Below are positions 49,669-64,000 of a DNA stretch of 64,000 bases, one piece after another. A model generated the notes under the pieces. It had not been told where the DNA came from. It searched no databases and worked only from the letters and a program-made list of their open reading frames with translations. Position numbers and translations under genes: made by a program. The first letter of the stretch is position 1; every line of letters starts with the position of its first letter. Source of the DNA: an uncultured Armatimonadetes bacterium (GTDB taxonomy: Bacteria > Armatimonadota > Hebobacteria > Hebobacterales > Hebobacteraceae). The stretch is from assembly GCA_963716175.1 (NCBI GenBank), contig OY970296.1:3456001-3520000 (forward strand). The letters run 5' to 3'.

Positions 49669-49758
49669 GGAGGTCCTCCTACCACCGTGATGACGGCGAT
49701 GCAGGCCCACGCGCTGGGCCAGCTTCGACCTGCCCCGTGGCGGCCGACAGCATGTTCG

Positions 49759-49888
49759 TAGAAGCTGTTTCATAACCTTCCCAGGGGAGGTTATGAGACA
49801 GCACTGCACAACGTCAGGCAGTGGCAGGCGCATTTCATGCGAGGGCGTGGTGCGGCCAGCCGGCAGGTAGGTTATGAAATGCGCTCTA
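49759..49888 (+). mobile_element. MITE family B (130 bp, IS5-like ends), copy 1
   Basis: TIRs TAGAAGCTGTTTCATAACCT / AGGTTATGAAATGCGCTCTA; 4 mismatches to the copy at 63185-63314. Confidence 0.8.
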
Positions 49889-49989
49889 AGGAGCGTCGCC
49901 GAATGAAGTAACGCGGCGAAGCTCAAGAGGCGGCCCACACAGGCATAGGGCGATGTTCGCACATTACTTCGTTGTGCGAACATCATTAG
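49886..49989 (-). mobile_element. MITE family A copy (104 bp, inverted), abutting family B
   Basis: GATGTTCGCACATTACTTCGTTGTGCGAACATCATTAG is the reverse complement of the 21366 left end. Confidence 0.75.
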
Positions 49990-50106
49990 TACAGACGCGC
50001 GGTTAGTTGCCGCAAATATGAGACACAGTTGAAGTTCCTGAGAAGTACCTCTGCTACCATCTCCAGCACTCGGGCATCGCCCGAAGACTACCATTGGAGG
50101 TAGGAG

Positions 50107-50472
50107 ATGAAGAGGTTCCTGGTAGGGTGCACTGTTCTGGGTCTCCTCTTGGGCATGGCAAGCGGTGTCTTCGCTGTCCAGAAGAGAGCCAAGGGCAAGG
50201 CGGCAGCAAAGCCGGCCGCGGCTGCGACCAAGGCGGCGACGGCTGAGCCTGCGGCCGCCAAGGCCGCTCCCGCGGAGAAGGCCAAGCCGGCGATGAAGAA
50301 GGCCAAGGGCAAGGCTGTCGCCAAGAAAGCGACCAAGAAGGTCGCAGTGAAGGCGAAGAAGGCCAAGGGCAAGGCTGTCGCCAAGAAAGCGACCAAGAAG
50401 GTCGCAGTGAAGGCGAAGAAGGCCAAGGGCAAGGCCGAGGCCGCGAAGCCGGTCGAGAAGGCGCCCCAGTAG
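50107..50472 (+). CDS. Lys/Ala-rich low-complexity protein with signal peptide
   Basis: AGGAG RBS, signal peptide, exact 60-bp tandem repeat (50295-50435). Confidence 0.75.
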   Translation: MKRFLVGCTVLGLLLGMASGVFAVQKRAKGKAAAKPAAAATKAATAEPAAAKAAPAEKAKPAMKKAKGKAVAKKATKKVAVKAKKAKGKAVAKKATKKVAVKAKKAKGKAEAAKPVEKAPQ

Positions 50473-50498
50473 TAGCAGTCTGGATAGCTGGCGAATGG

Positions 50499-50537
50499 GT
50501 GATGACCTCCGCGGAAAGCGGGGGTCATCACGCTTTT
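50499..50537 (+). terminator. intrinsic terminator
   Basis: GTGATGACCTCCGC-GGAAA-GCGGGGGTCATCAC followed by GCTTTT. Confidence 0.65.
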
Positions 50538-50749
50538 GTGGGGAGAAAGGGCTGGTGTTTCGATAGGGTTTATTCTGGAACCACGCGCGCCGAAAACCAC
50601 ATCTCGGAGGGGATAACCTGGAATTGCGGGCGTCTGACGAATGCCTGTTCGCCGGTTTGGGAGTGCTAAGCCGGAAAAAGAATGCGGCCGCGCTCCTGAG
50701 AGCGAGGTGTGACATTGGGATCTGCAAACAGGGACCCTCGGCGAGCGCC

Positions 50750-50953
50750 CTTCCATCGGACCAGGCCGAACGCTGCGGCGCGCGCCTGGTGATCGCCCTG
50801 CAGAAGGATCTCGTCATTGACCGCTCCACTCTCTTTCGCTGCGTCCAATTCCATCAGGCTTTCTCCCTGGAGGAGATTCTTGCCACGGGGAGACAATCTC
50901 AGCGGGGCCTAACCTGGAGCAAGCTACGCCTCATTTTGGCTCTTGACACGTGA
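50750..50953 (+). pseudogene. DUF1016 (YhcG) N-terminal-like fragment
   Basis: LQKDL..DRSTLFRCVQFHQAF...ILAT...LTWSKLRLIL resembles the DUF1016_N pattern; no clear start. Confidence 0.45.
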
Positions 50954-50979
50954 CGGGGCAAAGGGCCGCGGCAAGTCGT

Positions 50980-51008
50980 TGGACAGCGCGGGATTCATGT
51001 GGTATACT
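50980..51008 (+). promoter_or_regulatory. sigma70-type promoter of the element's left operon
   Basis: TGGACA-17bp-TATACT with extended TG. Confidence 0.6.
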
Positions 51009-51279
51009 CCCTTGCGCTTGATTCCGGCGGCATAGGCTGATCGGCGCAGATAGACAACCTGGCGGCCCGGGTGCCGTGTAGCGGGGCATATGACAGCTCC
51101 GTGTCGACTCATCCGGGTGATCGGCTCCAGTAGGGCCGGGCGGGAAGCACTGGGAACGTCTCCCTTGTGGAGGGGCGCAGTGCAATCCGCCGGTCCAAAA
51201 CCGAATAGATGCGCAGCGCCTTGGGCACTGGCCTCCGTACCACAAAGGACTAAGGCCTCAGACCCGCGGTCAAAGGATG

Positions 51280-51317
51280 AAAGCTGCCATGACCCCATTG
51301 GGGTTATGGCAGCTTTT
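51280..51317 (+). terminator. leader terminator/attenuator hairpin before the first gene
   Basis: AAAGCTGCCATGACCCC-ATT-GGGGTTATGGCAGCTTTT, about 10 bp before the AGGAG RBS. Confidence 0.6.
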
Positions 51318-51338
51318 GCGTTTACAGGAGATCATCCG

Positions 51339-51995
51339 ATGAGCAAAGCTACCAAGAAGCAAGGCACGCACGGCAGCGAGATCGACCAGCTTCAGACCGA
51401 GATCGCCCGCCTCAGCGCCCGCGTCGAAGAAGTGGGTGAGAAGGAGTCCGCGGCCGCGGCCGAGGAGCAACGGCTATCAGGTGCGCTCGGCGCATTGATC
51501 GGCCAGGCCAGGTCGCCCACTGAGATTGGAAAGACCCGGCGGCGGCTCCGGCAGATCGACGAGCAGCGCGCGGATCTGCGCGCTGGGCGGCAGTGGTTGT
51601 TGAGCTCATTGAGCGAAGCGGAGGCCCGCCTCGCCGCGGCGCGGAGGGAGAAGGGACTCCACCTCCTGGAGCGGGATGTGACGGAGCTTCGGAGCCTGGT
51701 GAAGAAACTCGTCGCGCTCGAGGCCGAGTCGGCCAGTACAGGGCAATTGCTGGTGGTTGCCTATGGATCTCTACTCACCCACGCGCGAGAGCTTCGCCAC
51801 GCGACGCCAGGAGGGGGCCTCGTTGACGTGCCGGATCTCGACGACGTGTTGTGGGGAGCCCTTACCAGCGGAGGGCCCGGCGGCAGTGACCACCGTGGAG
51901 CGCTCACGCTGGCGGCCGTCGCCTCCCGAAATGCGCATGCCGAGCTGCGACACTTGTTGGCGATAACCGTCCAAAGTCGGGGGAACGCCGAATGA
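51339..51995 (+). CDS. coiled-coil hypothetical protein
   Basis: AGGAG RBS; long heptad-like helical sequence. Confidence 0.7.
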   Translation: MSKATKKQGTHGSEIDQLQTEIARLSARVEEVGEKESAAAAEEQRLSGALGALIGQARSPTEIGKTRRRLRQIDEQRADLRAGRQWLLSSLSEAEARLAAARREKGLHLLERDVTELRSLVKKLVALEAESASTGQLLVVAYGSLLTHARELRHATPGGGLVDVPDLDDVLWGALTSGGPGGSDHRGALTLAAVASRNAHAELRHLLAITVQSRGNAE

Positions 51996-52693
51996 TCGCC
52001 TCCCGGGAGACAGCCGTGGCCAGCCCAGCGCCCGGCGGGCCCGAGAAATCCGCCGGCGAATCCAGCCCGGGATCCGCCCTCCCCGGCGGCGGATCGAGCC
52101 GGCCCGACTCTCTCAGCCCAGAGGAGGCTGCGCTCTTCGAGCTCATCGTTGGTCGCCTGGACAATCCGGAACTTGTTGACTCTCCCTTCGGTAGGGCCGT
52201 GCTAGTTTACCTCTGCCTGCGGCGCAGGGCGCCGGGCCTACAATTACTCCCTATTCTGCGGTGGCCGGCCGATTTGCTCTCCTCCTGCACTACCTCTCGC
52301 TTCCTTCATTCGGCCGTGCCTGACCTGGTTCCCGCTCCCCCGCCAGAGGAAGAGGATCTCGACCGTCCAAACGTCTGGCCCCCGCTGGCGCCCTCAGCCG
52401 GTACGATCGTCATCGGCCTGGAAACTTTTCACTGGCAAACCCCTTCCCTGGGCGAACTTGAAGGTTGCGAGAACTCTGTCGGCAGCCTTCATGATGGCCG
52501 CGTGCGGAGCTCGGCAAAGGCGTGTATCCGCCTCGCTGTTCTGTTCCTTCGCGCAAAGCATCCTGAGGTGACCGCCGAAATTGTCGGCGGCTTTGCCGCC
52601 AATGCCTGGGGGCCGCTCACCGATATGTTTAAGCGAGCTCTTCCTCATCTTTGGGCCGAGGGTACAGACCAGAAGGAGGGGATCCATGCTTAA
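51992..52693 (+). CDS. protein with two tail-assembly-chaperone-like domains
   Basis: GRAVLVYLCLRRRAPGL...WPAD and FHWQTPSLGEL..LAVLFLRAKHPEVT both align with the next two ORFs. Confidence 0.6.
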   Translation: MIASRETAVASPAPGGPEKSAGESSPGSALPGGGSSRPDSLSPEEAALFELIVGRLDNPELVDSPFGRAVLVYLCLRRRAPGLQLLPILRWPADLLSSCTTSRFLHSAVPDLVPAPPPEEEDLDRPNVWPPLAPSAGTIVIGLETFHWQTPSLGELEGCENSVGSLHDGRVRSSAKACIRLAVLFLRAKHPEVTAEIVGGFAANAWGPLTDMFKRALPHLWAEGTDQKEGIHA

Positions 52694-53090
52694 GGACGAC
52701 TTCACCGTCATGGGAACAGACTACCTCTGGAGCCCGCCGACAGCAGCGGATCTGGCTGAGTGGGAGCGTGAGATCGGTCAGCGGCCGCTGACCGACCAGA
52801 CCGCCCTGCGTTCGGTTCACGGGAGGGGCTATTTGCTGTGGCTGCTTTTCCGGCGGGATCAACCTGATCTCACCCTCGATCGGGTTCTGGCCTGGGGCCC
52901 GAACGTCATCGCCTCCCCGAACATCTCTCGCCTCCTCAACAAAGCGTGCCCGCAGCTCGGGATCGAGGAGGTCAAGGCGGACCCCCGACACATGTATGGC
53001 AGACAGACGACCAACCGCCAGAAAGGTCTCGCAACGAACCGGTCCTCCGGAGTCGAGCGTCTCCTGGACATCGAGGGGCCAGCCCGATGA
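52686..53090 (+). CDS. tail-assembly-chaperone-like protein
   Basis: AGGAGG RBS; YLWSPPTAADL.EWE..IG...SVHGR.YLLW..FRRDQPDLTL. Confidence 0.65.
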   Translation: MLKDDFTVMGTDYLWSPPTAADLAEWEREIGQRPLTDQTALRSVHGRGYLLWLLFRRDQPDLTLDRVLAWGPNVIASPNISRLLNKACPQLGIEEVKADPRHMYGRQTTNRQKGLATNRSSGVERLLDIEGPAR

Positions 53091-53132
53091 ATCGTGCGAT
53101 CGACGGTCTCTGCTGAGAAAGGATCACAAGTC

Positions 53133-53519
53133 ATGCCTTCAACCGGCACCATCGAAGTCGATGGCCACACCTATACCTGGCTCTCGCCCACGCTTGGGGA
53201 CTTGGAGCGGTTCGAGGCTACCATCGGGCCAATCTCCGACTCCGCTGCCATAAACAGCGTCAAGGGCCGCATTTGGCTCTGCTGGGCCTGCCTCAGAGAG
53301 AGCCAGCCGGACCTAACCTTGAAGCAGATCGGCGAGTGGCCAGCGGATGCCTGGAACGCCATCTGGGCCACGATCCAGCAGGCAATTCCGCTGTGGGGCC
53401 CCGCCAGCGGCGAGGACGAGAAGAAGAAGGAGAAGACCTCGGCCTCGCCCGACACCTCTGCCTCGCCTGCGCCCGACTCTGGGGGTGGCCCCCTTCCGTC
53501 ACCCGTCGGGAGCGGGTAG
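53133..53519 (+). CDS. tail-assembly-chaperone-like protein (gpG-like), immediately upstream of the TMP-like gene
   Basis: IEVDGHTYTWLSPTLGDL.RFE..IG...SVKGR.WLCW.CLRESQPDLTL; position before the TMP-like gene. Confidence 0.7.
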   Translation: MPSTGTIEVDGHTYTWLSPTLGDLERFEATIGPISDSAAINSVKGRIWLCWACLRESQPDLTLKQIGEWPADAWNAIWATIQQAIPLWGPASGEDEKKKEKTSASPDTSASPAPDSGGGPLPSPVGSG

Positions 53520-53555
53520 GCGATCTTCTCGACCTGCTCAGGGACTTAGAGAGCG

Positions 53556-55070
53556 ATGCCACAGACAGAGAAGCTCGAAATCCTAGTCCAGGCCCGCGAC
53601 CAGGCCAGCGCCGTCCTCAAGGGCGTCGCCGGTAACCTGCGCGGCGAGCTCAAAGCCGTCGAAGGCGCGAGTGCCGGTCTCGCCAGCACCAGCAGCCGCA
53701 TGGCCGGCACCACGGTCGCGGGATTCGGGCAGATGCGGGGCTCCGCCAAGGGGTTCACCTCCCAGCTCAATGCCACCAGGCTGGTGATGGCTGGTGTCGC
53801 CGTAGCCGCCGTCGGGATGGCCACCAAGTTCATTGAGAAGGCCGCCGAGGCCGAAGCCGTCGCCACCAAGCTCCGCGTCGCCATCGCCGCCAGCGGCCAG
53901 GGCATCAACCAGAAGGCGCTCGAGGAACTGGCCACCCATCTTGGGGAGGTGACTACCTTTAGCAAGGAAGCCGTCGAGGGTATGGAAGCGTTCCTTGTTG
54001 GCGCCCATCTGAATCAGGAACAGATCGAACGCCTCAGTCCGGCCATTATTGACATGGCTACCTACCTCGGCACCGACCTCACCTCTGCGGCCAAGGCCAT
54101 CGGCATGGCCCTCAAGAGAAACTCCACCATGCCCCTCATGCGCCTGAAGTTGGCGGTTGATAAGGCGAAGTTCGCGCTCGATCCGCTCGGCGCCATCCTC
54201 GATGCCATCAAAGGCAAGGCCGGCAACCTGGGTGAAGCCGCCGGCAGGGACGCTGGCGGCCAACTGGCCATCTTCACACACCAGGTGGAGCAACTCGAGA
54301 TCGCTCTCGGCACTATGCTCCTGCCGACACTCAAGCTCGTGGTTCCACTCATGAAAGACCTAGCCAAGGCCGCGACCGCGATCGCCCAGGTCCCGGGTGT
54401 CAGCCAGGTGGTGTCAGGCGGCATGCTTCTTGCTGGGGGCCTCGCGGTTGCCGGCCTGGTTGGTGGGCCCCTCGCAAAGGGGGCCAAAGGAGCGGCGGCA
54501 GTGGGCAAGTGGGCCCTTACCAGGGCGGGAGTCCTGGAGGCCGCCGCCCCCGTCGCCGAGGGCGTCGCCGAGGGCGCCGCCGTTGGCTTCGGCGCACGCG
54601 CGCTGGGGCTACTCGGCGGCCCGATCGGAGCGACCGCGGTCGTCGCCGGCACTGCCGCTACCATCGCCGGCCCGCCGCTCGCCCGCTGGAGGGAAGCCAG
54701 GCAGGAAGATGCCATCACTGCCCGCGCCCGGGCCTTCGTCGCCCGCAGGCGCGCTGCCGGCCTGCTAATCCCGGGCGAACCCTTCACCGGCCCGCCTCTC
54801 CAGGAGCCCGCCCGCGTGGCCCCTCCCACCGGCCCCGAGCCCACCCCCCAACAGCAATACGAATCCTTCCTCAGGGGCCAGGGCTGGGTGCTGCCCGCCC
54901 CCGCGCCCGCACCGGCGAAGATCACCAACACCGCCCCCAATGTCGCCGTCTCCCAGGCCGCCAACAACGACCTCCTCATCCGCGTCCAGATGCCCGAAGT
55001 CCCCCAGGGCCTGGTGGACGATTACACCAACGAATACCTCGAAGATGTTTCCTATGCCGAGGAGGAGTAA
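53556..55070 (+). CDS. short phage tail tape-measure-like protein
   Basis: N-terminal LEILVQARDQAS..L, ATHLGEVTTFSKEA, IIDMATYLGTDLTSAA, Ala/Gly-rich helical and hydrophobic core. Confidence 0.75.
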   Translation: MPQTEKLEILVQARDQASAVLKGVAGNLRGELKAVEGASAGLASTSSRMAGTTVAGFGQMRGSAKGFTSQLNATRLVMAGVAVAAVGMATKFIEKAAEAEAVATKLRVAIAASGQGINQKALEELATHLGEVTTFSKEAVEGMEAFLVGAHLNQEQIERLSPAIIDMATYLGTDLTSAAKAIGMALKRNSTMPLMRLKLAVDKAKFALDPLGAILDAIKGKAGNLGEAAGRDAGGQLAIFTHQVEQLEIALGTMLLPTLKLVVPLMKDLAKAATAIAQVPGVSQVVSGGMLLAGGLAVAGLVGGPLAKGAKGAAAVGKWALTRAGVLEAAAPVAEGVAEGAAVGFGARALGLLGGPIGATAVVAGTAATIAGPPLARWREARQEDAITARARAFVARRRAAGLLIPGEPFTGPPLQEPARVAPPTGPEPTPQQQYESFLRGQGWVLPAPAPAPAKITNTAPNVAVSQAANNDLLIRVQMPEVPQGLVDDYTNEYLEDVSYAEEE

Positions 55071-55110
55071 CCCTCAATGCCAGCGGCAAGCGGGAGTCGG
55101 GAGAGCCAGA

Positions 55111-55440
55111 ATGACAGAGCAGGTTGCAACGGCAGTCCGGGGAGTGGCGGCAATCAGAGCCTCCGTCGCGGTGAGAGTCAGGCCCGACCTTGTGGCGACA
55201 CTCAGTCCGGAGGTGGCCGCGAGGCTGTTCGGCCTTGGCGATGAGGAGAAGCCCCACGAGTATCTGACCGTCAACGAAGCGGCGGAAATGCTCCGCGTCG
55301 TGCCCCAGACCGTCCACCATATGATCCGTGATGGCCGCCTCCGGGCCCAACGCGTGTGCGACAAGCGCGTCCTCATTAAGCGCGAGGAGGTGTTGCGCTG
55401 CTTTGAGCCTATTGAGCCGCAGAGGTACGAGCTCGACTGA
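55111..55440 (+). CDS. excisionase-like HTH_17 DNA-binding protein
   Basis: YLTVNEAAEMLRVVPQTVHHMIRDGRLRA. Confidence 0.85.
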   Translation: MTEQVATAVRGVAAIRASVAVRVRPDLVATLSPEVAARLFGLGDEEKPHEYLTVNEAAEMLRVVPQTVHHMIRDGRLRAQRVCDKRVLIKREEVLRCFEPIEPQRYELD

Positions 55441-55444
55441 GGGA

Positions 55445-56224
55445 ATGACGGCTTCCATGGCAACGTCCACCGCAACATCGAAGAGCCCCCGGCCCCAGAT
55501 CGGTCTGCTCGAGTCCACCCCGAAGCAGGTGCTCCCGATCGGGGTGCGTGCTATCGGCCGGTCAGGCGTCCTCGAGCTGATGAGGATTGGCGGCGGACTC
55601 TCCTACAAAGAGGTCGGCAAGCGGGCCGGTATGCCACCCGTCAAAGCCATGCGCCTGATCCGCGGCCAGTACCTTAAGGCTCGCCACCGGGATCTCCGGC
55701 GGATCCTCGATGTCCTCTGGGCCGCGCTTCCGGCCATCCAGCAACCGGGTCCGCTGCAGGTAATCGAGGAGGCAGAGCGTCGCTTCGCCCTCCCGCGCAC
55801 CGCGAGGCCCATGTATCTTACCCTCGATGAGGCCGCCGACCTGCTCAAGGTGAACCGGGCGAAGATGCGCCGGCTCGCCAGCGACCGCCCCGAACTTCAC
55901 GCCATCAGGGTCGGGTGGGGCGTCAGGATTCCCCGCCAGGCGATAGAAGAGTATATCCTCGCCCCGCGCCGGGCCGCGGCCTCCTCGAAGTTCATGTCGC
56001 CGGCGGCTGTGGCCGCCCTGTTCCGAGTGCATGAAGATGTGATCGGGTATGCCATCCGCACTGGCCGCATCCGCGCCCAGCAGTCAACGAAACAGAAGTG
56101 GGGCCGCTGGCGCATTCCCATGGCCGAGGTCAGGCGCATCGCCCGCTTCGGAGTCACCAATCTGCCCCGGCTCAAAAGCTGGGGGCCCACACACAGAGAC
56201 CATGATCGCCGCCCTACTGCGTAG
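55445..56224 (+). CDS. multi-HTH protein (XRE-like plus two HTH_17 domains)
   Basis: GLSYKEVGKRAGM; YLTLDEAADLLKVN; FMSPAAVAALFRV...IRTGRIRA...WRIP. Confidence 0.75.
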   Translation: MTASMATSTATSKSPRPQIGLLESTPKQVLPIGVRAIGRSGVLELMRIGGGLSYKEVGKRAGMPPVKAMRLIRGQYLKARHRDLRRILDVLWAALPAIQQPGPLQVIEEAERRFALPRTARPMYLTLDEAADLLKVNRAKMRRLASDRPELHAIRVGWGVRIPRQAIEEYILAPRRAAASSKFMSPAAVAALFRVHEDVIGYAIRTGRIRAQQSTKQKWGRWRIPMAEVRRIARFGVTNLPRLKSWGPTHRDHDRRPTA

Positions 56225-56659
56225 TCCTTCATATCTCGAGCGATCTGCCTCGGCCTTCCCATGCCGCGGCTCGGCGGAACCGCCTCTCGGGTTCGGGCGG
56301 AGCCTGGCGTGTCAGCGCCAGGCCGAGGGGTCGGCGGTGTTCCAGCACCGCCGACCCGCGCTCTCATCTGCCTTGATAGGGGTAGGGCGCCTGGCATGCG
56401 GACACCAGGCGCGGGGGCCAGTGGTGCTAGCACACGGCTGGCCCCGGATCTCGCTCACGCAGATTCACCCAGGGCAACGGCGGCTTTCCGCCTTGGCCGC
56501 CGATCTCCAGCCAGGGGCGAGGCCCGCACGCGGCCCGATCCCACCCCTCGCCCCCGGGCTGCCCTCATCCTTCTCTTTCTCGGGCCGGGGCGACTCTGCC
56601 CTCCCAGCTCTCGGCCAAACGACGCTCTACGAGGCCCCAGGAGAAGAGCATTGATCGGG

Positions 56660-57307
56660 ATGCACCCATACCCATCCCCTGCCCCGAACGCCTCTCCTAC
56701 CCCCCATGACACCCCGTCACAGGGGCATTCCCTGCGCGACCTCAAGTTGCAGGCCGGACTCTCCGTGCGCCAGATCGCCGATCGCACCCGGATCCACTAT
56801 CGCCGTGTCGCTCGCGTGCTTTCCGAGAGAGGGCGCCCCCGGCGCCGGGAACTCAGGGTCCTGCGGCAATGCCTGGATAATGAACTCCGCCGCCGGCGCA
56901 GCTCCGATCCCGGCTTCCTGCGCTCTATCCAGGAGGTGGCCGTTCCCTTCCTGCATGCCCGCCTGAGGCCTAGCGGTGACTGCGCTGCGGGTGAGGATCC
57001 CGCTTTGCATCGAGGGAGTTCACTATCTCCCGTCGAAGACGTCGTTGGCGGCGAGGGAATCGCAGCAGGCGGCCCCTGCGCTCGGCGGAATGGGTCCCGT
57101 CAGGCCGCGGGAGCTCCTGCGACACTATTCGGCCGGCGGCGGCTGAGTGGCAAGCGAGCACCTGCGATTCCCTCCCGCCGCTCTCATCCAGGGAATCAGA
57201 TTTCCCCGCTCCTGTGCGAGGCCACCACGGTCTGCCCCACCTCCACCGCGGAGGCGCTCAGGGCCCACGCGCCGGCGCCCGCCCCGGAGAGGAATCCGTC
57301 CGAATGA
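56660..57307 (+). CDS. XRE/Cro-like HTH protein (C-terminal half uncertain)
   Basis: LRDLKLQAGLSVRQIADRTRIHYRRVARVLSE. Confidence 0.55.
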   Translation: MHPYPSPAPNASPTPHDTPSQGHSLRDLKLQAGLSVRQIADRTRIHYRRVARVLSERGRPRRRELRVLRQCLDNELRRRRSSDPGFLRSIQEVAVPFLHARLRPSGDCAAGEDPALHRGSSLSPVEDVVGGEGIAAGGPCARRNGSRQAAGAPATLFGRRRLSGKRAPAIPSRRSHPGNQISPLLCEATTVCPTSTAEALRAHAPAPAPERNPSE

Positions 57308-57744
57308 GCGCGAGATCCTCCGCGGCCGCCACAACCACGCTCGCCCTCCCCGCCGCCGTCGCCCGGGGCCTCCTCGATTGGCGCCGGCGCCTGCAGCAGG
57401 TGGAGCTCGCTCGCCGTCTCTTCTCGCCGCAGGCCGACCAATTGCAGCGGGACCTGTGGGGCGAGGTGGCCCATGCCGTGCTCAGTGCTGGCGACGAGGA
57501 GGCGATCGCCCAGCTCCTGCCCGCCGTTGCGCGGCGGCTGCGGATCAGCCCCGCCAGCCTTTCCCGGGTACTGGAGGTGGGCCGGGCCTGGCCCCAGGAG
57601 ATCCCGGAGCGCCCCTGGATCGTTCTCTGCGCCCTCGCCCGCCTGCCCCAGGAAGAGCGAGATCGCCTGGACGCGGCCCTGCCTCTGGACGCGCCCCTGA
57701 GCGCGGTCACTTCGCCGGCACAAAAAGCGGACGGAGACGCTTGA
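57304..57744 (+). CDS. hypothetical protein, helical DUF1016_N-like pattern
   Basis: ATGA overlap with the upstream stop; VARRLRISPASLSRVLEVGRAWP...PW. Confidence 0.55.
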   Translation: MSARSSAAATTTLALPAAVARGLLDWRRRLQQVELARRLFSPQADQLQRDLWGEVAHAVLSAGDEEAIAQLLPAVARRLRISPASLSRVLEVGRAWPQEIPERPWIVLCALARLPQEERDRLDAALPLDAPLSAVTSPAQKADGDA

Positions 57745-57768
57745 CAGGGCGAGGATATGGTATATAAT
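57741..57768 (+). promoter_or_regulatory. near-consensus sigma70 promoter for the HTH-transposase operon
   Basis: TTGACA-16bp-TATAAT. Confidence 0.7.
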
Positions 57769-57799
57769 GCCTGATAATGCCAGATCAGAAGAAGATAGC

Positions 57800-58009
57800 A
57801 TGGCTGAGCGCCTGATCAAGGCTCGTGAGGCGGCCGCCATCCTTGGCGTGAAGCCGCTCACGATCTATAGGTGGGCTGCCCAGGGGAAACTAGCCTCGCT
57901 CCGCGTAGGCCCCGGGGGGAAGATGCTTCGCTTTCGCTATGCTGACATCAGGGCCTTGATCAAGGAGAGCCAGGCCCAGGACAAGCCCGGCGACGAGGGG
58001 GCTGGGTAA
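57800..58009 (+). CDS. excisionase-like HTH_17 protein
   Basis: LIKAREAAAILGVKPLTIYRWAAQGKL...RFRYADI. Confidence 0.88.
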   Translation: MAERLIKAREAAAILGVKPLTIYRWAAQGKLASLRVGPGGKMLRFRYADIRALIKESQAQDKPGDEGAG

Positions 58010-58039
58010 TGGCCGCCCGCACGGAGAGGGCAAAGGTGC

Positions 58040-58136
58040 TGTCAGACGGTCTGACGGGCGCAATAGCGCGCCGAACCTGTGACATTCACCGTGTCAGACG
58101 GTCTGGCACGCGTAATAGCGCCCGAAAGTGTGACAT
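58040..58136. repeat. two ~46-bp tandem repeats (TGTCAGACGGTCTG...AATAGCGC...TGTGACAT)
   Basis: 58040-58085 and 58092-58136; motif related to the element-end sequences. Confidence 0.8.
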
Positions 58137-58829
58137 ATGAAGGCCCCCGCCAGGAAGCAGAGCGACAATCCCCAGATCCCGCTCCCCCTGGAGCTGGAGC
58201 GCGCTCTTCCGTCGCTGCGGGAGCGCCTCGCTCAGATTCAGTCCGCCCTCGGGGGCAAGCCGGATTACGCCGCGGTCAACCGCTGGCGCTGGGAGCTCGG
58301 GATCCAGATCTCGGACGCGTTGCGGAGCCATGCCCCGGAGGCCACCATGCGACCCCATGTGCTGGCGCTCGCGCCGCGCCTGGGGTGCAAGGCCTCCCTG
58401 CTTTACGGGTTCGTGAACGTCGCTAGGGCCTTCCCCGATGAGCCTCCGCCCCAGTATTGGGACACCCTCGTGCACCTTGCGGCCATCGAAGATCCGCAGC
58501 GGCGCCAGGAAGCTCTGCGTCGGCTTCCGGATTGGGCGCCAGTCCGCTTGTCCAGGCCCACCCGGGAAGAGGTCGAGTCCGAGAAGATGCTGCGAGAGAT
58601 CAAGCTCAGCGCCCAGCACGAGCTCGACGCGGCCCGCCATTTTGTCCACAAGCTTCCTTCCACACAGCAGCTCTTCGTCGCCCAGGAGATACTGGAAGGC
58701 TTCGACGAAAAGGCCGTCGCCGAACTCACCGACCCACCGCTCCAGATAGCTGAGATCTGCAAGGCCACCGAGAGGCTGAGAACGCTCCTGACCTGTGCCG
58801 CCGCAGGCCCCAATGAACCACCAACCTGA
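58137..58829 (+). CDS. hypothetical protein, DUF1016_N-like N-terminal region
   Basis: RWELGIQI...LAPRLG..ASLLY.FV.VARAFP...YW..LVHLAAIEDPQRR. Confidence 0.6.
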   Translation: MKAPARKQSDNPQIPLPLELERALPSLRERLAQIQSALGGKPDYAAVNRWRWELGIQISDALRSHAPEATMRPHVLALAPRLGCKASLLYGFVNVARAFPDEPPPQYWDTLVHLAAIEDPQRRQEALRRLPDWAPVRLSRPTREEVESEKMLREIKLSAQHELDAARHFVHKLPSTQQLFVAQEILEGFDEKAVAELTDPPLQIAEICKATERLRTLLTCAAAGPNEPPT

Positions 58830-60666
58830 TGAGACAATCGCCGCCCTCATAGCCCAGGTCAATGCGCTGCTCGCCGAAGGGGCGGGCCCCGAGATCGTCG
58901 GCCCCCTCCTCCAGCGGCTGAAGCAGTTATCGAAGCACGGTTCTTGCATCCACAACCTGCGGCGCATCGCCACCTTCCGCGCCGTGAAGAGAGATTCTGC
59001 GGTCAGTCAGGCCGCGCAGCGCTGGATCAAGCGCGGCCAGCGCGCCGCCCTCAAGCCGAGCAGGGCGGCGGGCCCGGTCACCAGGCAGCAGATAGGCCTC
59101 TGCCAGCAGTTCCTCGCGATAGATGCCCAGCCCGAGCCGCTCAGGTCCCGCCTCCTGGAGGCGAAGGCCCACGATCTGAACCTATCATTGCCGACCCTCC
59201 TCGGTAAGCTGAGGAAGGCGAAGGCACAGGGCCCGGATGGCCTCGCCCGCCGGCGCCGCCGCGATCGGGGGCGCTGCCGGGAGCCCGAGGAGGTTCAGGG
59301 GTTCTTCCGCGATCGGCGGATCAACAAGGCCACCCGCCACGAGCCGGTGCAGCTCTCCATCGATGCCACCCGGCGCGAGTTCCCCGATCTCCGGATCTCC
59401 GCCGATGCTTTGCGCCGCCTCGACCGGGGCATCGGGAGGCCGCTCACCATGAGCAAGGAAGAGAGGCGCCGGCGCTACCTCCCGAGCGGCCAGTGGGAGG
59501 TTGCGCACCCAAACCACACCTGGGTGCTCGACTGCACCGTCGCCGATCTCTTTGTCTGGGACGGCGATCCCGATGAGAAACCCTACCGGCCTCACCTCAC
59601 CGCCATCATAGATGAGTGCACCCAAAGCTGCATGTGGGCCATCTACACGAAGGAGACGCCCAGCACGGCCGTCCTCCAGGGCGTCCTTCTTCACGCCATT
59701 CTTCCCAAGAGCGATCCCGACTGGCCTCAGTGTGGTTTCCCCAGGTATCTGCACTGCGACAACGGCAAGGTTCAGACCTCGCACTGGCTCAGGCAAGTCT
59801 GTGCTGCCTGCCACACGAAGCTGGATCTCATGGGCGAAATCCGCCATGCCGGGATTCGCTCCCCCTGGCAGGACGGTCATATCGAAAGCTTCTTCGGCAT
59901 CGCCCACCGCCGTTTTGAGGGCCAGCTCGGGGCCTGCTATTGCGGGAATGACCCCAAGCGCCGGCCGGATTGCTTCGCCGACCCCGAGGGGAAAGGGCCT
60001 CGCGTCTGGCAGCAGTATCCGACGCTCGATATCCTCAATGAGGGCTTCCGCATCTGGATCAGCGCCGACTATCACCACGGCATGAAGCATAGCCGGCTGA
60101 AGATGAGCCGCGCCAGGTATTGGGACCTGCACGCGGATGGCTATGTCGCCGTGGTGCCGGAGGCTTACCTCCGGTACGAGCTGATGCAGCGCGACCAGCG
60201 CAATGTTGTCGGCCCCAGGGTTAGCATCTTCAATCGCGCCTACCGGCATGAGGATCTCATTGCCTATGACGGCATGAGACTCGAGGTCCGTTGGGATCCC
60301 GCTGATCTCACCAAAGTGGGCGTGGTCAGCCCCAGCGGGGCCGTCATTGTCGCCGCGCGAGAGCCGGTCGGCTCAGTGGATGATCCCAAGGATCTCTCCG
60401 CCCTCAAGGGCTGGCGCCGGCGCAGCAAGGCCAAGCTGGAGGCCATTGACACCGCCGCGCGGGTGCTGGCGGGAGGCACTGAGGCTGATCGCCGCACCTT
60501 CGAGGAGAGACTGACGAAGCATCGGGAGAGGCAGCCGATCCGCTTCACCGGCCGGCGCCCCCAGGTTCTCAAGCCAAAGCAGGAAGAGCAACCGGACGCC
60601 ACTGAGGCGCTCGACCTGATCCGGGGCGCAGGGCAGCGCGGCGTGGCCATGGCGGAGCGAGTCTAA
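58813..60666 (+). CDS. Mu/TnsB-like DDE transposase
   Basis: PNHTWVLDCT (D), LTAIIDECT, LHCDNGK (D), DGHIESFF (E), Mu-transposase C-terminal VRWDPADL. Confidence 0.88.
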   Translation: MNHQPDETIAALIAQVNALLAEGAGPEIVGPLLQRLKQLSKHGSCIHNLRRIATFRAVKRDSAVSQAAQRWIKRGQRAALKPSRAAGPVTRQQIGLCQQFLAIDAQPEPLRSRLLEAKAHDLNLSLPTLLGKLRKAKAQGPDGLARRRRRDRGRCREPEEVQGFFRDRRINKATRHEPVQLSIDATRREFPDLRISADALRRLDRGIGRPLTMSKEERRRRYLPSGQWEVAHPNHTWVLDCTVADLFVWDGDPDEKPYRPHLTAIIDECTQSCMWAIYTKETPSTAVLQGVLLHAILPKSDPDWPQCGFPRYLHCDNGKVQTSHWLRQVCAACHTKLDLMGEIRHAGIRSPWQDGHIESFFGIAHRRFEGQLGACYCGNDPKRRPDCFADPEGKGPRVWQQYPTLDILNEGFRIWISADYHHGMKHSRLKMSRARYWDLHADGYVAVVPEAYLRYELMQRDQRNVVGPRVSIFNRAYRHEDLIAYDGMRLEVRWDPADLTKVGVVSPSGAVIVAAREPVGSVDDPKDLSALKGWRRRSKAKLEAIDTAARVLAGGTEADRRTFEERLTKHRERQPIRFTGRRPQVLKPKQEEQPDATEALDLIRGAGQRGVAMAERV

Positions 60667-61397
60667 TGCAGGAATGGCGGCTGGGCAGTCAGATCATCTA
60701 TGCCATCGGTCCCCTCGAGGAGTATCTCGCGGCGCTTGATCTCTCGCCGCGCCTGGAGGGATGCGAGCAGCGCATCATCCTCGTGGTGGGCGATCCCGGC
60801 ACAGGGAAAACCGTTGCCGCTCGCATCTATGCCCGAGACTGTGACCGCCATCCGATCTACATCGCCATGCCCGCGGCCGAGATGCTCCGCCCCCGGGATC
60901 TCCTCGATATCCTCGGCCGCCCGGTCGGGCTCAGCTTCGACCTCCATTACCCCCGCTATGAGGTGGGGCAGCAGCTCGCCCGTGACAGCCTCGATCGCCC
61001 CCGCATCTTCCTTCTCGATGATGCCCATGCCATGGCCAGGGGCGGCTTGCTCGACATGCTCAGGTGGTTGCATGATGCCGGCGGCCACACCTTCGTGCTC
61101 ATCGGGCCGCCATCCCTGGAGAGGGAGTTTGTGGCCCGGCGCGACCTCGCCGGTCGCGTCGCCCTGCGCCACCAGGTCCGCTTACCCAGTGTAGACGAGA
61201 TCGCTCCCCTCTTCGACAGCCTCTCTGCTGAGGCACTGGAGCAGATCCACCAGGAGACAGGCGGCCGCATGCGCCAGGTGATAGCGCTCGAGAAATGGCT
61301 CGGCGAGCTCATCGAGCAGCGCAAGCTCGCCCCCTCGGATCTCGTGCCGAAGCAGGTGCAGATGGTGGCCCGGCACTTCATGGTGAAGGTGGCGTGA
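60666..61397 (+). CDS. AAA+ ATPase (MuB/TniB/TnsC-like)
   Basis: Walker A GDPGTGKT, Walker B FLLDDAH, FVLIG, TGGRMR; TAATG coupling to the transposase. Confidence 0.88.
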   Translation: MQEWRLGSQIIYAIGPLEEYLAALDLSPRLEGCEQRIILVVGDPGTGKTVAARIYARDCDRHPIYIAMPAAEMLRPRDLLDILGRPVGLSFDLHYPRYEVGQQLARDSLDRPRIFLLDDAHAMARGGLLDMLRWLHDAGGHTFVLIGPPSLEREFVARRDLAGRVALRHQVRLPSVDEIAPLFDSLSAEALEQIHQETGGRMRQVIALEKWLGELIEQRKLAPSDLVPKQVQMVARHFMVKVA

Positions 61398-61430
61398 TCC
61401 CTCAGCCATGGAGCGAAATGGGAAGGAGCA

Positions 61431-61670
61431 ATGAGCGGCACGAAAAGGGTGCGGGTCGATCACACAGCGGGCAGCCTAGCCAAGGTCGGAGTCGGGATCT
61501 TAGAAGGCGGGGGCGGCTACCTTCTAGAGTGCCGCATCTGTCTCCAGATATGGTCGCCGATGCAGGACATCCCGCTGGAAGAACTGACGACGAGGCGGCG
61601 GTTGCCCCGCGGCTGGTGGCATTGCCCCAACGGGCGCAATCATCCCAGCAAGGAGCCAGCGAGTAGCTAA
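61431..61670 (+). CDS. small Cys-containing (possible Zn-ribbon) protein
   Basis: AGGAG RBS; ECRIC...W...LPRGWWHCPNG. Confidence 0.6.
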   Translation: MSGTKRVRVDHTAGSLAKVGVGILEGGGGYLLECRICLQIWSPMQDIPLEELTTRRRLPRGWWHCPNGRNHPSKEPASS

Positions 61671-61999
61671 TGGGCACGAAGCGGCTTCCCCGAGATACAG
61701 AGAAGCAGAAGGCCTGGGCCCGCAAGCTCGGCGCCCAGGCAATCATCCCGCCAATCTGCTGCTTCCGTTACTACCGGGAGAGCATCGGGCAGTATTACCC
61801 CCGGCTCTTCCGCCGTGCCTTCGAGCTCGGCGCCGTCGCCGCGCTCAAGCAGGTGCTGCAGGAGATCGCCCAGCCCGATGATCCCTGCGCCGGGCTCCCC
61901 CCACACCTGGTCAAGTCTGCCCGGGCCACCAAGCGCGCCCGGGAGAGGAAGGCGGCACAGATCCACCCCGGCCGGGGGTCTAAGAGGGCGGCAGCATGA
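61670..61999 (+). CDS. hypothetical protein
   Basis: ORF starting right after the upstream stop, basic C-terminus. Confidence 0.5.
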   Translation: MGTKRLPRDTEKQKAWARKLGAQAIIPPICCFRYYRESIGQYYPRLFRRAFELGAVAALKQVLQEIAQPDDPCAGLPPHLVKSARATKRARERKAAQIHPGRGSKRAAA

Positions 62000-62089
62000 T
62001 CCGAAGCAGACCGGGGCACCCTAAGGGGTTCTCCGGTTCACAGATAGCTGGCGGCGGCAGGGGCAACCAATGCGAGGAGGAAATCGCCC

Positions 62090-62473
62090 ATGCCTGAGAG
62101 GACGGTCGAGGGGTCGGACCCGGCGCGGCCAGCCGGGGTAGAGGAGCAGGAGGCGAAGATCATGCAGCGGTACTGGCGCCTGGAGATCATCACCGACGAA
62201 CCCGAGAGGGGACCGTGGCAGGAACTTCGCGACTTCTGGGCCCAGCTCAGCGGACGGATCCAGTCAGACATCGCGAAAGTGAGGGCGTTCTCGGCGAGCC
62301 CCGGAGCGCCTGAGAGCAAGAGAGCATGGATCGCGGTGTGCGCACAGGATGCCGAGCACGACCTCGGCGACGCTGCGGTGCTAGTGCGGTTCGCGATCGC
62401 GGAGCTGGAGCGGCTGGATTCCTCGCTAGGGGAAGCCGCAGAGGAAATGTCGCAGGCGCTCAAGGCCAGGTAG
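62090..62473 (+). CDS. hypothetical helical protein
   Basis: GAGGAGG RBS. Confidence 0.55.
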   Translation: MPERTVEGSDPARPAGVEEQEAKIMQRYWRLEIITDEPERGPWQELRDFWAQLSGRIQSDIAKVRAFSASPGAPESKRAWIAVCAQDAEHDLGDAAVLVRFAIAELERLDSSLGEAAEEMSQALKAR

Positions 62474-62835
62474 CAGGGGCCGGAAGGCCCCAAGAGGTTC
62501 GTGAAAGCTCATCAGTAGCCAAATCCGACCCCTGCCGTCGCCATCATAACAGGACCGGGCCGCTCCCACAAGCCCCATACAGAGGGCCGCGCTCTCCTCT
62601 GAACGCAGGCGGCGATCGCCCTGCAGATCCCGCCCTCCTGGGCCCCAGATCCGGGCGATCCCAGCGCCCTCCCGGGTCCTCGCCGGGGCTCCGAATCCCC
62701 TCTTCACCCCCCTCATCCCCGCCCCGTGTCAGACGTCCGCAGCGTCGAAATAGCACCACAGTATTCCGGGTCAACTCGCGCGACAGACGTCCGTATTCCA
62801 CTTTATCCCCGCGCGCCACAGCTGGGGGGATAATG

Positions 62836-62886
62836 TAAGCATTTGTTTGCAGAAGCCTTGACATAGAAACATGTGTTTGCTATACT
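62836..62886 (+). promoter_or_regulatory. sigma70 promoter overlapped by LexA(SOS)-box-like sites
   Basis: TTGACA(62858)-17bp-TATACT; GAAAC-ATGT-GTTTG between -35 and -10, and TAAGC-ATTT-GTTTG upstream, resembling GAAC-N4-GTTC. Confidence 0.7.
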
Positions 62887-62904
62887 TCGGTCAGGCATCA
62901 GACG

Positions 62905-63165
62905 ATGGCTAGTCTGGAAGTGATCGGGGAGGCGGTCCGGGTCTGCGCCTATTTTCCGTGGGGGCGGATCTCGCCGCGGTGGTTTGAGTGGAAAGGTCGC
63001 TGCTACCGGGTAGCAGAGATTCGGAGCCGCTGGGTGACTAACGAAGGGGTGGGCCGGTGCTATCACTTCGCGGTCACGGTGGAGGGACGCGCCGACCTCT
63101 ACGAGTTGTGCCTGCGTTCCGAGACCATGGGATGGCACTTGGGAGGCATTGACGTGACTGGATGA
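62905..63165 (+). CDS. small conserved protein (DUF6504-like)
   Basis: P.WFEWKGR.YRV..I..RW...YHFAV...LYEL.....W.L pattern. Confidence 0.65.
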   Translation: MASLEVIGEAVRVCAYFPWGRISPRWFEWKGRCYRVAEIRSRWVTNEGVGRCYHFAVTVEGRADLYELCLRSETMGWHLGGIDVTG

Positions 63166-63184
63166 GGACCGGCGATCTGCAGAT

Positions 63185-63314
63185 TAGAAGCTGTTTCATA
63201 ACCTTCCCAGGGGAGGTTATGAAACAGCCCTGCACAACGTCAGGCAGTGGCAGGCGCATTTTATGCGAGGGCGTGGTGCGGCCAGCCAGCAGGTAGGTTA
63301 TGAAATGCGCTCTA
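63185..63314 (+). mobile_element. MITE family B copy 2
   Basis: 126/130 identical to 49759-49888. Confidence 0.8.
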
Positions 63315-63356
63315 CGCAGATGGCATAGATGCAGGGGAGTCTGTAGGGCCAGCGGC

Positions 63357-64000
63357 ATGAGCGATACTAAGCCAAAGGTAAGACGGGTTTTCGCTCACGT
63401 GCGGGTGCACGGCCTGGGCGCTTCGGTGGAGGCGCGAGCGCACGGCGGAGGCAAGCCCGCGGTGCTGTGGGATGAGACCGGGCAGCGCGTGATGAGCGCC
63501 TCCGCCGCGGCCTGGCAGCGCGGGGTGCGGCCGGGTCATTCTCGCTGGGAGGCGGAGCGCCGATGCCCGGAGCTGATCGCGCCGCAGCCGGACCCGGAGA
63601 AGTATGAGTATTTCTGGCAGCGCCTCTTGGATATTTGCGAGGACTATGCGCCGGAGGTGCGAGTAGGAAAAGGATCCGCAGATTACGCAGAGATTCCGCT
63701 CGACCTCACTGGCACCGAGCGCTTGCTCGGACCTGCGAAGGTCGTCGGGTTGGAGATTCGCAACCGGCTGCGGGTGGAGGTGGGGCTGACGGCTTCCGTG
63801 GGCATTGGCCCCAACCGGATGGTGGCGTGGCTGGCCTGTGGGTCGGCGCGGCCCGGCGAAGTAGTCGAAGTGTCGTCGGAGGAGGCGGCCCGATTCGTGG
63901 GAGGGCTGCGCATCGGCGCGCTGCCCGGGGCGGATGCGGAGTGGATCGCGCGGCTGGGTGAAATGGGGATCAGGAGGGCGGAGGAGCTGGCCAAGCTGCC
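63357..64000 (+). CDS. Y-family DNA polymerase homologue, likely catalytically inactive (ImuB-like); 3' truncated by window edge
   Basis: manual translation: HVRVHGLGASVE, GVRPG...EAERRCPEL, LDLTGTERLLG, GLTASVGIGPNRMVA, LPG; open to window end. Confidence 0.8.
   Translation, partial: MSDTKPKVRRVFAHVRVHGLGASVEARAHGGGKPAVLWDETGQRVMSASAAAWQRGVRPGHSRWEAERRCPELIAPQPDPEKYEYFWQRLLDICEDYAPEVRVGKGSADYAEIPLDLTGTERLLGPAKVVGLEIRNRLRVEVGLTASVGIGPNRMVAWLACGSARPGEVVEVSSEEAARFVGGLRIGALPGADAEWIARLGEMGIRRAEELAKL

Follow-up and report, generated by a model that had tools for sequence, protein, structure and literature searches.

What is an element that has the ends and the transposition genes of a Mu-like phage but almost none of the genes for a phage particle? 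This question is raised by a locus in an uncultured bacterium of the phylum Armatimonadota. The window, that is, the whole stretch that was analysed, is 64 kb of a complete 4.56-Mb genome (about 66% G+C), and all credible genes between about 50.5 and 62.8 kb of it lie on the + strand. A previous sequence-only reading had put this block forward as a candidate transposable phage satellite. It is firmly shown here that the block is a discrete Mu-type transposon insertion, which entered as one unit, and that the element is phage-derived and non-autonomous. As to how it lives, we see about an even chance that it is a non-autonomous, probably helper-dependent natural "mini-Mu" that comes from Mu-like siphophages of Armatimonadota.

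A discrete Mu-type insertion

Positions 48500-63900 were compared with contigs from four publicly available metagenome runs (X1-X4). It turned out that contigs of two of the four runs, X3 and X4, which belong to two different studies, join 50550 straight to 62821. This is the empty site. The joint skips 12,270 bases, and five letters at the joint fit either side. The X3 contig is 301 nt long, with 166 and 135 nt on the two sides and 6 mismatches, and X4 contributes one contig. Since these contigs agree with identical GCTGG pentamers at the two borders, the element extends over 50556-62820 (12,265 bp, 5'-TG...CA-3'). Its borders are the following.

50551-50555, no strand: left 5-bp target-site duplication GCTGG (five ambiguous letters at the joint, identical pentamers)
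50556-50640, + strand: left end, with the terminal TG, a weak terminal copy of the transposase site at 50556-50585 and a strong inner copy at 50605-50640 (repeat comparison)
62727-62820, - strand: right end, with an inner site at 62727-62760, a terminal site at 62781-62820 and the final CA (repeat comparison)
62821-62825, no strand: right 5-bp target-site duplication GCTGG (empty-site joint, identical pentamers)

The TG..CA termini together with the 5-bp duplication are characteristic of DDE transposition of the Mu type (and of the Tn7 type). The sequence-only reading had asked for a comparison with an empty-site relative, and the allele recovered in X3 and X4, with the 5-bp duplication, supplies it. 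Its right end, 62820, proved exact at the empty-site joint. Its left end, TGTGG at 50537, lies 19 bp outside the element, and we dropped it for the TG at 50556 on the basis of the joint and the pentamers. The imperfect inverted repeat that had been seen at the borders does exist, but the true pair is another one: the right-terminal 30-40-nt repeat at 62781-62820 pairs with 50605-50640, and a weaker copy lies at 50556-50585. The inverted end repeats also have a half-site in common with internal palindromes at 58040-58121. The genes that flank the element are partly syntenic in three genomes of the same family (G010, G013 and G014); there, the neighbours are 3.8-5.2 kb apart, against 16.6 kb in the window. 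No element gene was found in any of the five relatives' stretches fetched for the host locus.

The right part of the element is occupied by the early operon with the transposition module.

57741-57768, + strand: consensus sigma-70 promoter, 12/12 matches, ahead of the early operon (promoter scan)
57767-58009, + strand: Ner/excisionase-like HTH_17 protein, first gene of the early operon, likely start 57800 (Pfam 1.5e-10, phrog_66 3e-12, homologue in locus L008)
58040-58121, no strand: two 30-nt repeats with palindromic cores, whose half-site also occurs at both element ends (repeat family, motif positions)
58137-58829, + strand: early protein of 230 aa, in the position of the DUF1016_N-like gene of canonical relatives (paralogy, hhalign)
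58795-60666, + strand: MuA-like DDE transposase with D246, D322 and E364 (Pfam, PHROGs, TnsB-core alignment)
60666-61397, + strand: MuB-like AAA+ ATPase with Walker A and Walker B (AAA_22 2e-13, phrog_296 1.5e-13)
61431-62473, + strand: three small open reading frames (ORFs) after MuB (61431-61670, 61670-61999 and 62090-62473), the middle one conserved after MuB in L008

Pfam and PHROGs scans covered 19 ORFs of the element region. They confirmed the gene content that had been read from the letters alone: a transposase, an AAA+ ATPase, helix-turn-helix (HTH) genes and tail genes. The transposase matches Mu-transpos_C (3e-9), rve and phrog_310 (7e-56). When it is aligned to the TnsB core, its D246, D322 and E364 fall on the D, D and E of the latter; the three residues do not vary between relatives, and by analogy with the family they probably form the catalytic triad. 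The ATPase gene is start/stop-coupled to the transposase gene, and its Walker motifs are read from the translation. Thus, the MuA/MuB module looks intact. The repeats at 58040-58121 are a candidate operator or enhancer. The early gene 58137-58829 matched no Pfam or PHROG family. This gene and 57214-57744, both of which precede MuA, are mutual paralogues with a distant similarity to the DUF1016_N-like family (hhalign probability 75%, E 2.5e-5). Of the ORFs after MuB, 61670-61999 has 59% identity over 83 aa with its counterpart in L008; none of the three matched a Pfam, PHROG or PADLOC family. No Rfam family was found in 49500-63400, including the leader of the tail-gene operon described below. 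The consensus promoter would drive expression of the Ner-like gene, the small early gene, MuA and MuB, with the operator region between the first two. MuA would bind the repeated end sites, and MuB would deliver the target DNA.

At the left end, the element starts with a damaged gene.

50624-50953, + strand: truncated DUF1016_N-like early gene (tblastn, blastp, weak Pfam match to DUF1016_N)

Positions 50741-50947 encode only the equivalent of residues 50-115 of a 234-aa homologue. The fragment is 42% identical to L016:1070-1774 (tblastn, E 4e-12) and 38% identical to a homologue in G005 (blastp). The canonical phage contig L016 carries, in this order, a full-length DUF1016_N-like gene, two small genes, MuA, MuB, Gam, terminase and a Mu portal. 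Just upstream of its first early gene there is the 18-nt core of the inner left-end repeat of the window; when the window end motifs were searched in the relatives, this was the only match. In L017, a prophage-like early region from the same family, a full-length DUF1016_N-like gene is directly upstream of MuA. We also observed that L016:990-1060 resembles the left junction of the window (GGGCT.G, then TGT), about 45 nt before the inner end-repeat copy. This may mark the left end of L016 and hint at a shared target preference.

Mu-type ends and genes of this kind are not confined to phages. Tn7-like and Tn5053-like transposons have a related transposase core, an AAA+ partner, a 5-bp duplication and TG..CA ends, the last two known from Tn7. 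It could be supposed that the element is such a cellular transposon, with captured phage genes as cargo, and is not phage-derived. The closest solved structures to the transposase by sequence are indeed TnsB proteins (alignment to the TnsB core, E 5e-15), and the ATPase has a weak Pfam match to TniB. However, both proteins match phage families, the transposase phrog_310 and the ATPase phrog_296. The nearest transposase relatives are in L016, which is Mu-ordered (Gam, terminase, Mu portal), or in L017. The left end and the first gene also match the L016 layout. Unlike these transposons, the element encodes neither TnsA nor TniQ/TnsD nor a resolvase, as far as the 19 scanned ORFs show, and its relatives are phages. 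We consider a cellular transposon with phage cargo very improbable.

Tail genes and their phage relatives

Between the left end and the HTH genes lies an operon of tail-assembly genes.

50980-51008, + strand: promoter-like site, 10/12 matches, extended -10, ahead of the tail-gene operon (promoter scan)
51280-51316: hairpin in the leader of the tail-gene operon (inverted repeat)
51339-51995, + strand: coiled-coil protein, 218 aa
51992-52693, + strand: protein with two domains like those of a tail assembly chaperone (TAC), at 52136-52366 and 52391-52678 (tblastn)
52686-53090, + strand: third TAC-like gene, domain 52707-52895 (tblastn, 44% identity over 63 aa to the window TAC)
53133-53519, + strand: predicted TAC, domain 53133-53513 (position in relatives, phrog_2115 2.6e-4)
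53556-55070, + strand: predicted tape measure protein (TMP), 504 aa (position in relatives, weak matches to TMP phrogs, 4.5e-4 and 2.4e-3)

We assign 53133-53519 as the TAC and 53556-55070 as the TMP because in canonical relatives their homologues sit exactly between the tail tube and the distal tail genes; both assignments are well grounded by this position. A scan of JGI metagenomes with the TMP gave ten loci. In L006, the order is a Mu gpG-like tail completion gene, two small genes, the tail tube (Phage_tube_2), a TAC homologue (58% identity over 88 aa), a TMP homologue (32% identity) and the distal tail. Two IMG/VR contigs that were reached through a capsid gene search, L026 and L027, show the order Gam, large terminase, gpT capsid, tail completion, tube, TAC, TMP and distal tail. 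L029 keeps the same order from the terminase through the TAC, where the contig ends, and L028 ends just past gpT. L005 has a distal tail gene after the TMP. The window TAC is 40-58% identical to the gene between the tube and the TMP in L006, L026, L027 and L029. This position is seen in the canonical relatives; the window itself has no tube gene. Similarly, the TMP homologue is followed by distal tail genes in L005, L006, L026 and L027, and in the window HTH genes follow instead.

An AlphaFold (AF2) model of the TAC, built from 5 sequences, has a pLDDT of 73. Its best PDB match is the HK97 TAC 2ob9, and this match is weak (E 0.065, prob 0.97, TM 0.43-0.49). In BFVD, it mostly matches TACs and the N15 GT protein, with a best E of 5.7e-4. 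Comparison of the TMP profile with solved structures gave only chance-level matches. By alignment, the TMP gene is complete: its two conserved parts, 280 aa at the N terminus and a motif at the C terminus, are present. A large protein collection holds six TMP homologues. The TMP had been described as short. Its 504 aa turned out to be an ordinary length for this phage group, with homologues of 491-618 aa in the relatives.

The three genes with TAC-like domains that had been read from the sequence were found again by tblastn, now with four domains. The two domains of 51992-52693 gave E values of 1e-7 and 1e-14 with the window TAC and the L006 TAC as queries. The genes 51992-52693 and 52686-53090 are diverged paralogues of 53133-53519. 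Thus, four TAC domains in three genes are present here, versus one in every relative examined. The first gene of the operon, for the coiled-coil protein, matched no Pfam, PHROG or PADLOC family and has no homologue in any fetched locus. In the ESM Atlas, it falls among unnamed clusters. The nearest named cluster carries the Psu family on 20% of its members, with a score below the recognition level; Psu is the capsid-decoration and polarity-suppression protein of the P4 satellite.

No family of capsid, portal, terminase, tube, sheath, baseplate, lysis, integrase, TniQ or Cas proteins was found by Pfam and PHROGs among the 19 ORFs. The statement that the element carries only tail-assembly genes holds in the sense that, among virion genes, the TAC and the TMP alone were matched.

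Could the tail genes have a function of their own? Defences encoded by mobile elements are known to be directed at tail assembly. Tab is reported to have the tape measure protein as its target (PMC10884400), and PICIs and P4-like satellites are reported to carry Tai (PMC11364771); both systems are encoded by prophages or satellites and block the assembly of tails. The TAC array and the TMP, expressed from the resident element, might likewise cause the tails of an infecting Mu-like siphophage to be mis-assembled or re-templated, either as a defence of the host or for the transfer of the element itself. The surplus of TAC domains, the promoter-like site that the tail operon has of its own and the existence of candidate target phages with 31-58% identical TAC and TMP are consistent with this idea. 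However, within the operon the coding signal is weakest in the extra TAC copies, and the TMP is of the usual length. PADLOC (library of 2023) found no family for any of the 10 ORFs scanned. Tab and Tai, in contrast, are dedicated proteins of small size that have partner counter-defences; they are not TAC or TMP homologues, and no homology to element genes was detected. Interference with foreign tails is an improbable function.

Searches in wider collections gave few relatives. An alignment of the TMP found none among genome contigs and two distant matches only in IMG/VR, where an alignment of the TAC found none. Besides the own genome, 401 Armatimonadota genomes yielded two distant TMP matches, both in another phage context, where gpT lies at a distance of about 4 kb and MuA found no match. 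Among 50,697 phage records, the MuA query gave one match with 25% identity and the TMP query gave none. To judge by these searches, the element appears to have no close cultured relative, and the nearest cultured phages are remote.

Compact relatives and the origin of the element

In the window, the TMP is followed by a block of HTH genes.

55111-55440, + strand: HTH_17 (excisionase/MerR-type) DNA-binding protein (Pfam 1e-11, phrog_66)
55328-56224, + strand: regulator with one HTH_31 and two HTH_17 domains, likely true start near 55445 (Pfam)
56261-57307, + strand: open frame with an HTH_31 domain (about 56720-56965) and weak coding signal (Pfam 2e-4, frame plot)
57214-57744, + strand: paralogue of the gene before MuA, distantly DUF1016_N-like, with a weak HTH_31 match (41% identical to L008:4969-5682)

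By Pfam, at least four HTH genes are present, in line with the four that had been read from the letters alone. The real gene within 56261-57307 is probably shorter than the frame. Its HTH_31 domain is 38-44% identical to a short ORF located between the terminase and capsid genes of four loci (L026:5828-6040, L027:7662-7916, L028:4161-4403 and L029:5953-6204), which is an unexpected place for a regulator.

This block is shared with two diverged relatives. The locus L008 has the same gene order as the window: TAC, TMP, HTH_17 gene, multi-HTH regulator, Ner-like gene, early gene, MuA, MuB and the post-MuB ORF, with 35-59% identity. L004 contains the TAC, the TMP, the HTH_17 gene and the regulator in the order of the window, with 36-69% identity, the highest value being reached over the N-terminal 305 aa of the TMP. 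L009 overlaps L008 identically over 1,028 bases. The homologue of 55111-55440 follows the TMP in both L004 and L008. The regulator 55328-56224 is 51% identical to that of L004 and 36% identical to that of L008; it was found only in these compact relatives, and an alignment search of IMG/VR gave no relatives of it. Judging by the order TAC-TMP-HTH genes-(MuA-MuB), the window element, L004 and L008/L009 appear to form a small lineage.

Upstream of the TAC, the relatives differ from the window. In L009, a gpT capsid gene (PF10124 1e-33, phrog_371) stands directly before the TAC, and in L004 it lies about 1 kb before it. Thus, gpT is next to the TAC in both compact relatives whose upstream DNA is visible, and the window copy has no gpT. 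Unlike in canonical phages, no tail completion or tube genes stand between the capsid gene and the TAC in L004 and L009. No recognisable portal, protease or terminase was found in the 3.3 kb upstream of gpT in L009. The other upstream ORFs of L009 and L004 gave two marginal matches only in Pfam and PHROGs (DUF6301, E 0.0035; phrog_23432, E 0.0097). When the upstream DNA of both loci was compared by tblastx with the canonical phages and with the genome of the window, only short, low-scoring, high-GC noise segments were obtained. No interpretable result came from a search by k-mers for the ends of L009/L008. One homologous gene (L009:2680-3342 and L004:1492-2307; 28% identity, 178 aa) is upstream of gpT in L009 and downstream of it in L004. 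Since the side of gpT on which it lies differs, the compact elements have apparently been reshuffled around the capsid gene.

The sequence-only reading had suggested a search for the same gene order at other loci. The order does recur in two diverged relatives, but both of them also carry gpT. According to the same reading, the element would be just a deleted Mu-like prophage if its homologues always carried head and tail genes. This is partly the case: gpT is present in L004 and L009, and L005, L006, L026, L027 and L029 are ordinary phages with canonical tail-module genes.

The main rival to the mini-Mu is therefore a dead-end remnant. According to this explanation, a full Mu-like prophage or a tandem pair was cut to 12.3 kb by internal deletions and recombination, the loss was so recent that the frames are still open, and the element is now immobile and inert. 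We consider this rather unlikely, though a number of observations favour it and weigh against a living mini-Mu. The early gene at the left end is truncated, so that the element has been damaged by one rearrangement or more. The coding signal is weak over about 1 kb (56.2-57.2 kb), and the G+C content at third codon positions (GC3) is lower in the duplicated TAC domains than in the neighbouring genes. The absence of the capsid gene that L004 and L009 have fits a stepwise loss. The element is present in a single copy in the genome, as a transposase query showed. Among 14 genomes of the same family, the TMP was found in none and MuA in one. No relative has been seen complete with both ends.

There is also no helper-type prophage in the genome. 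A genome search found no gpT gene, and tblastn with every long ORF of the related loci revealed neither a terminase nor a portal, capsid or tube like those of these phages; a search for the Portal_Mu family gave nothing either, but its positive control was equally silent. The only other matches to the canonical phage group in the genome are two loci (G000:C1:1535504-1536148 and 2973492-2974124), which are 34-50% identical to a 276-aa tail-region gene of canonical phages (L057 and L058).

Further points also weigh against the mini-Mu. By the identity of the TAC, the TMP and MuA, the compact members do not stand apart from the canonical phages. Since the identities do not group them, the lineage is mosaic, and a common origin would be indicated by gene order alone. 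Neither a helper nor packaging nor a second insertion site has been observed. For the tail genes, a dN/dS near 1 had been named as a sign against a satellite. The values, obtained by NG86 on saturated, GC3-biased pairs of the window and its relatives and thus a rough guide, are 0.36-0.54 for the TMP, 0.39-0.55 for the TAC, 0.46 for MuA, 0.51 for MuB and 0.42 for the regulator. The sign is thus absent, and the tail genes do not exceed MuA or MuB. However, the values mainly reflect a history of constraint inside functional phages and not the present constraint on this copy. The empty site is no argument against the remnant, because internal deletions leave the ends and the duplication untouched.

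Other evidence is difficult to reconcile with the dead-end remnant. The TMP-HTH junction, and in L008 also the MuA-MuB part, recurs in two relatives whose proteins are 35-69% identical. Such a junction would not arise again by independent decay; therefore, a shared ancestor kept spreading after it had formed. The parts needed for transposition look intact (DDE residues, Walker motifs, multi-site ends and the consensus promoter), and the site is polymorphic in present-day populations. Pieces from X4 are about 93% identical to the chaperone array, the start of the tape measure gene and the HTH region, and the deletion that this variant has in the TAC array, at 52779, is in frame (3 nt). Thus, a non-canonical junction that is repeated in relatives down to 35% identity, an intact transposition apparatus and the presence/absence polymorphism argue for a living element.

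The mini-Mu would spread with outside help, because it lacks the genes to build a particle of its own and yet persists as a diverged lineage. A complete Mu-like phage would help it, packaging the element from its left end by the headful route, as for engineered mini-Mu. The TAC and TMP genes may be retained cargo that engages the tail assembly of the helper, or they may be the last surviving structural genes.

The element as a whole looks mosaic, with a canonical left end and its broken first gene, a late-type block and a complete early operon. Its ORFs had been taken for intact. This applies to MuA and MuB, which look intact, and not to the early gene at the left end. We also considered a second Mu-like insertion nested after the TMP; it was rejected, as the TMP-HTH gap is about 40 bp and contains no end-like repeat.

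Known elements and the surroundings of the insertion

Mu-like phages are about 35-40 kb long. With Mu and Mu-like siphophages of the D3112/B3 type, the element shares the MuA-type DDE transposase with Mu-transpos_C, the adjacent MuB-like ATPase, the TG..CA termini, the repeated end sites, the 5-bp duplication and the Ner-like gene that leads the early operon. Its uncultured relatives carry Gam, the Mu portal, the gpT capsid and gpG-like tail completion. Unlike these phages, the element is 12.3 kb long and has no head, terminase, tube, tail-tip or lysis genes. The gene order is also different. In Mu and L016, the transposase genes are located by the left end and the structural genes far downstream, whereas in the element the TAC and the TMP precede the A and B genes.

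Engineered mini-Mu is packaged by a helper, by the headful route from the left end. Like engineered mini-Mu and mini-D3112, the element consists of ends and transposition functions without lethal or structural phage functions. In contrast to engineered mini-Mu, it is natural, contains a large block of HTH regulators together with TAC and TMP genes, and is a member of a small diverged lineage. Mini-Mu and mini-D3112 elements are reported to transpose and to be mobilised with help (PMC8705779).

The element can also be compared with P4, phage-inducible chromosomal islands (PICIs), capsid-forming PICIs (cf-PICIs) and PICI-like elements (PLEs). All of them are mobile and have an incomplete set of virion genes and rich regulatory modules, and some carry a few helper-related morphogenesis genes. 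P4, PICIs, cf-PICIs and PLEs use site-specific recombinases and act mainly on heads or packaging. The element, in contrast, has no integrase among the 19 ORFs, and the 135-nt direct repeat on its two sides is no att site; its mobility is of the Mu type, and it carries tail genes, with a capsid gene in its relatives. To our knowledge, all well-described phage satellites integrate by site-specific recombinases. Full-text literature searches brought up no paper on a satellite or compact natural element based on Mu-type transposition and none on a satellite that keeps TAC and TMP genes; the nearest literature found there concerns ordinary Mu-like phages or P4-like satellites.

There is a moderate chance that the element marks a new class of satellites. 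A more detailed proposal is that the element, L004 and L008/L009 are an undescribed class that uses Mu-type transposition and has kept the ends, MuA and MuB, a sensor-like HTH block and the TAC and TMP (with the capsid in some members). Its members would be packaged by the headful route, from the left end, by Mu-like siphophages of Armatimonadota, and their own chaperones and TMP would bias or sabotage the helper tails. In this full form, the proposal is doubtful. If the compact lineage is helper-dependent, it would represent a new mode of mobility for satellites. It would also be the counterpart in nature of the laboratory mini-Mu, which takes host DNA along when it is packaged by the headful route and so drives transduction. 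If the element is a decaying prophage, the locus still has its use, as a Mu-type insertion with exact borders and an empty-site allele from the phylum Armatimonadota, whose phages are essentially unknown. The locus also ties an uncultured group of Mu-like siphophages to a host.

Several observations concern the DNA around the insertion. A 135-nt direct repeat flanks the element (49759-49893 and 63185-63319). We considered it as a pair of att sites and rejected this, because it is dispersed in the genome, with 40 near-full-length matches (95-100% identity, both strands). It contains an internal 19-nt palindrome and may be described as a MITE/REP-like family. On the left, the gene 50107-50472 encodes a secreted-looking Lys/Ala-rich protein and is made of 60-nt tandem repeats. 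Their number varies between strains, since a contig of X2 is one 60-nt unit shorter (joint 50294->50355). The insertion point is 24 bp past the terminator hairpin of this gene (50499-50531). Contigs of X1 and X4 link 63691->51035 with 13 extra letters, and short CGCAGAT-type repeats are found at both places; this is probably a repeat-driven similarity, not a rearrangement. Other loose contig ends, among them those at 50813, 51466, 52113 and 62472, may point to mosaic relatives. On the right, 62858-63998 is a host operon with its own promoter-like site, encoding a DUF6504 protein and a Y-family (ImuB/IMS) polymerase. The right end of the element lies 38 bp upstream of the -35 hexamer of this operon, and the pair of DUF6504 and Y-family polymerase genes is kept in 10 of the 14 genomes of the same family.

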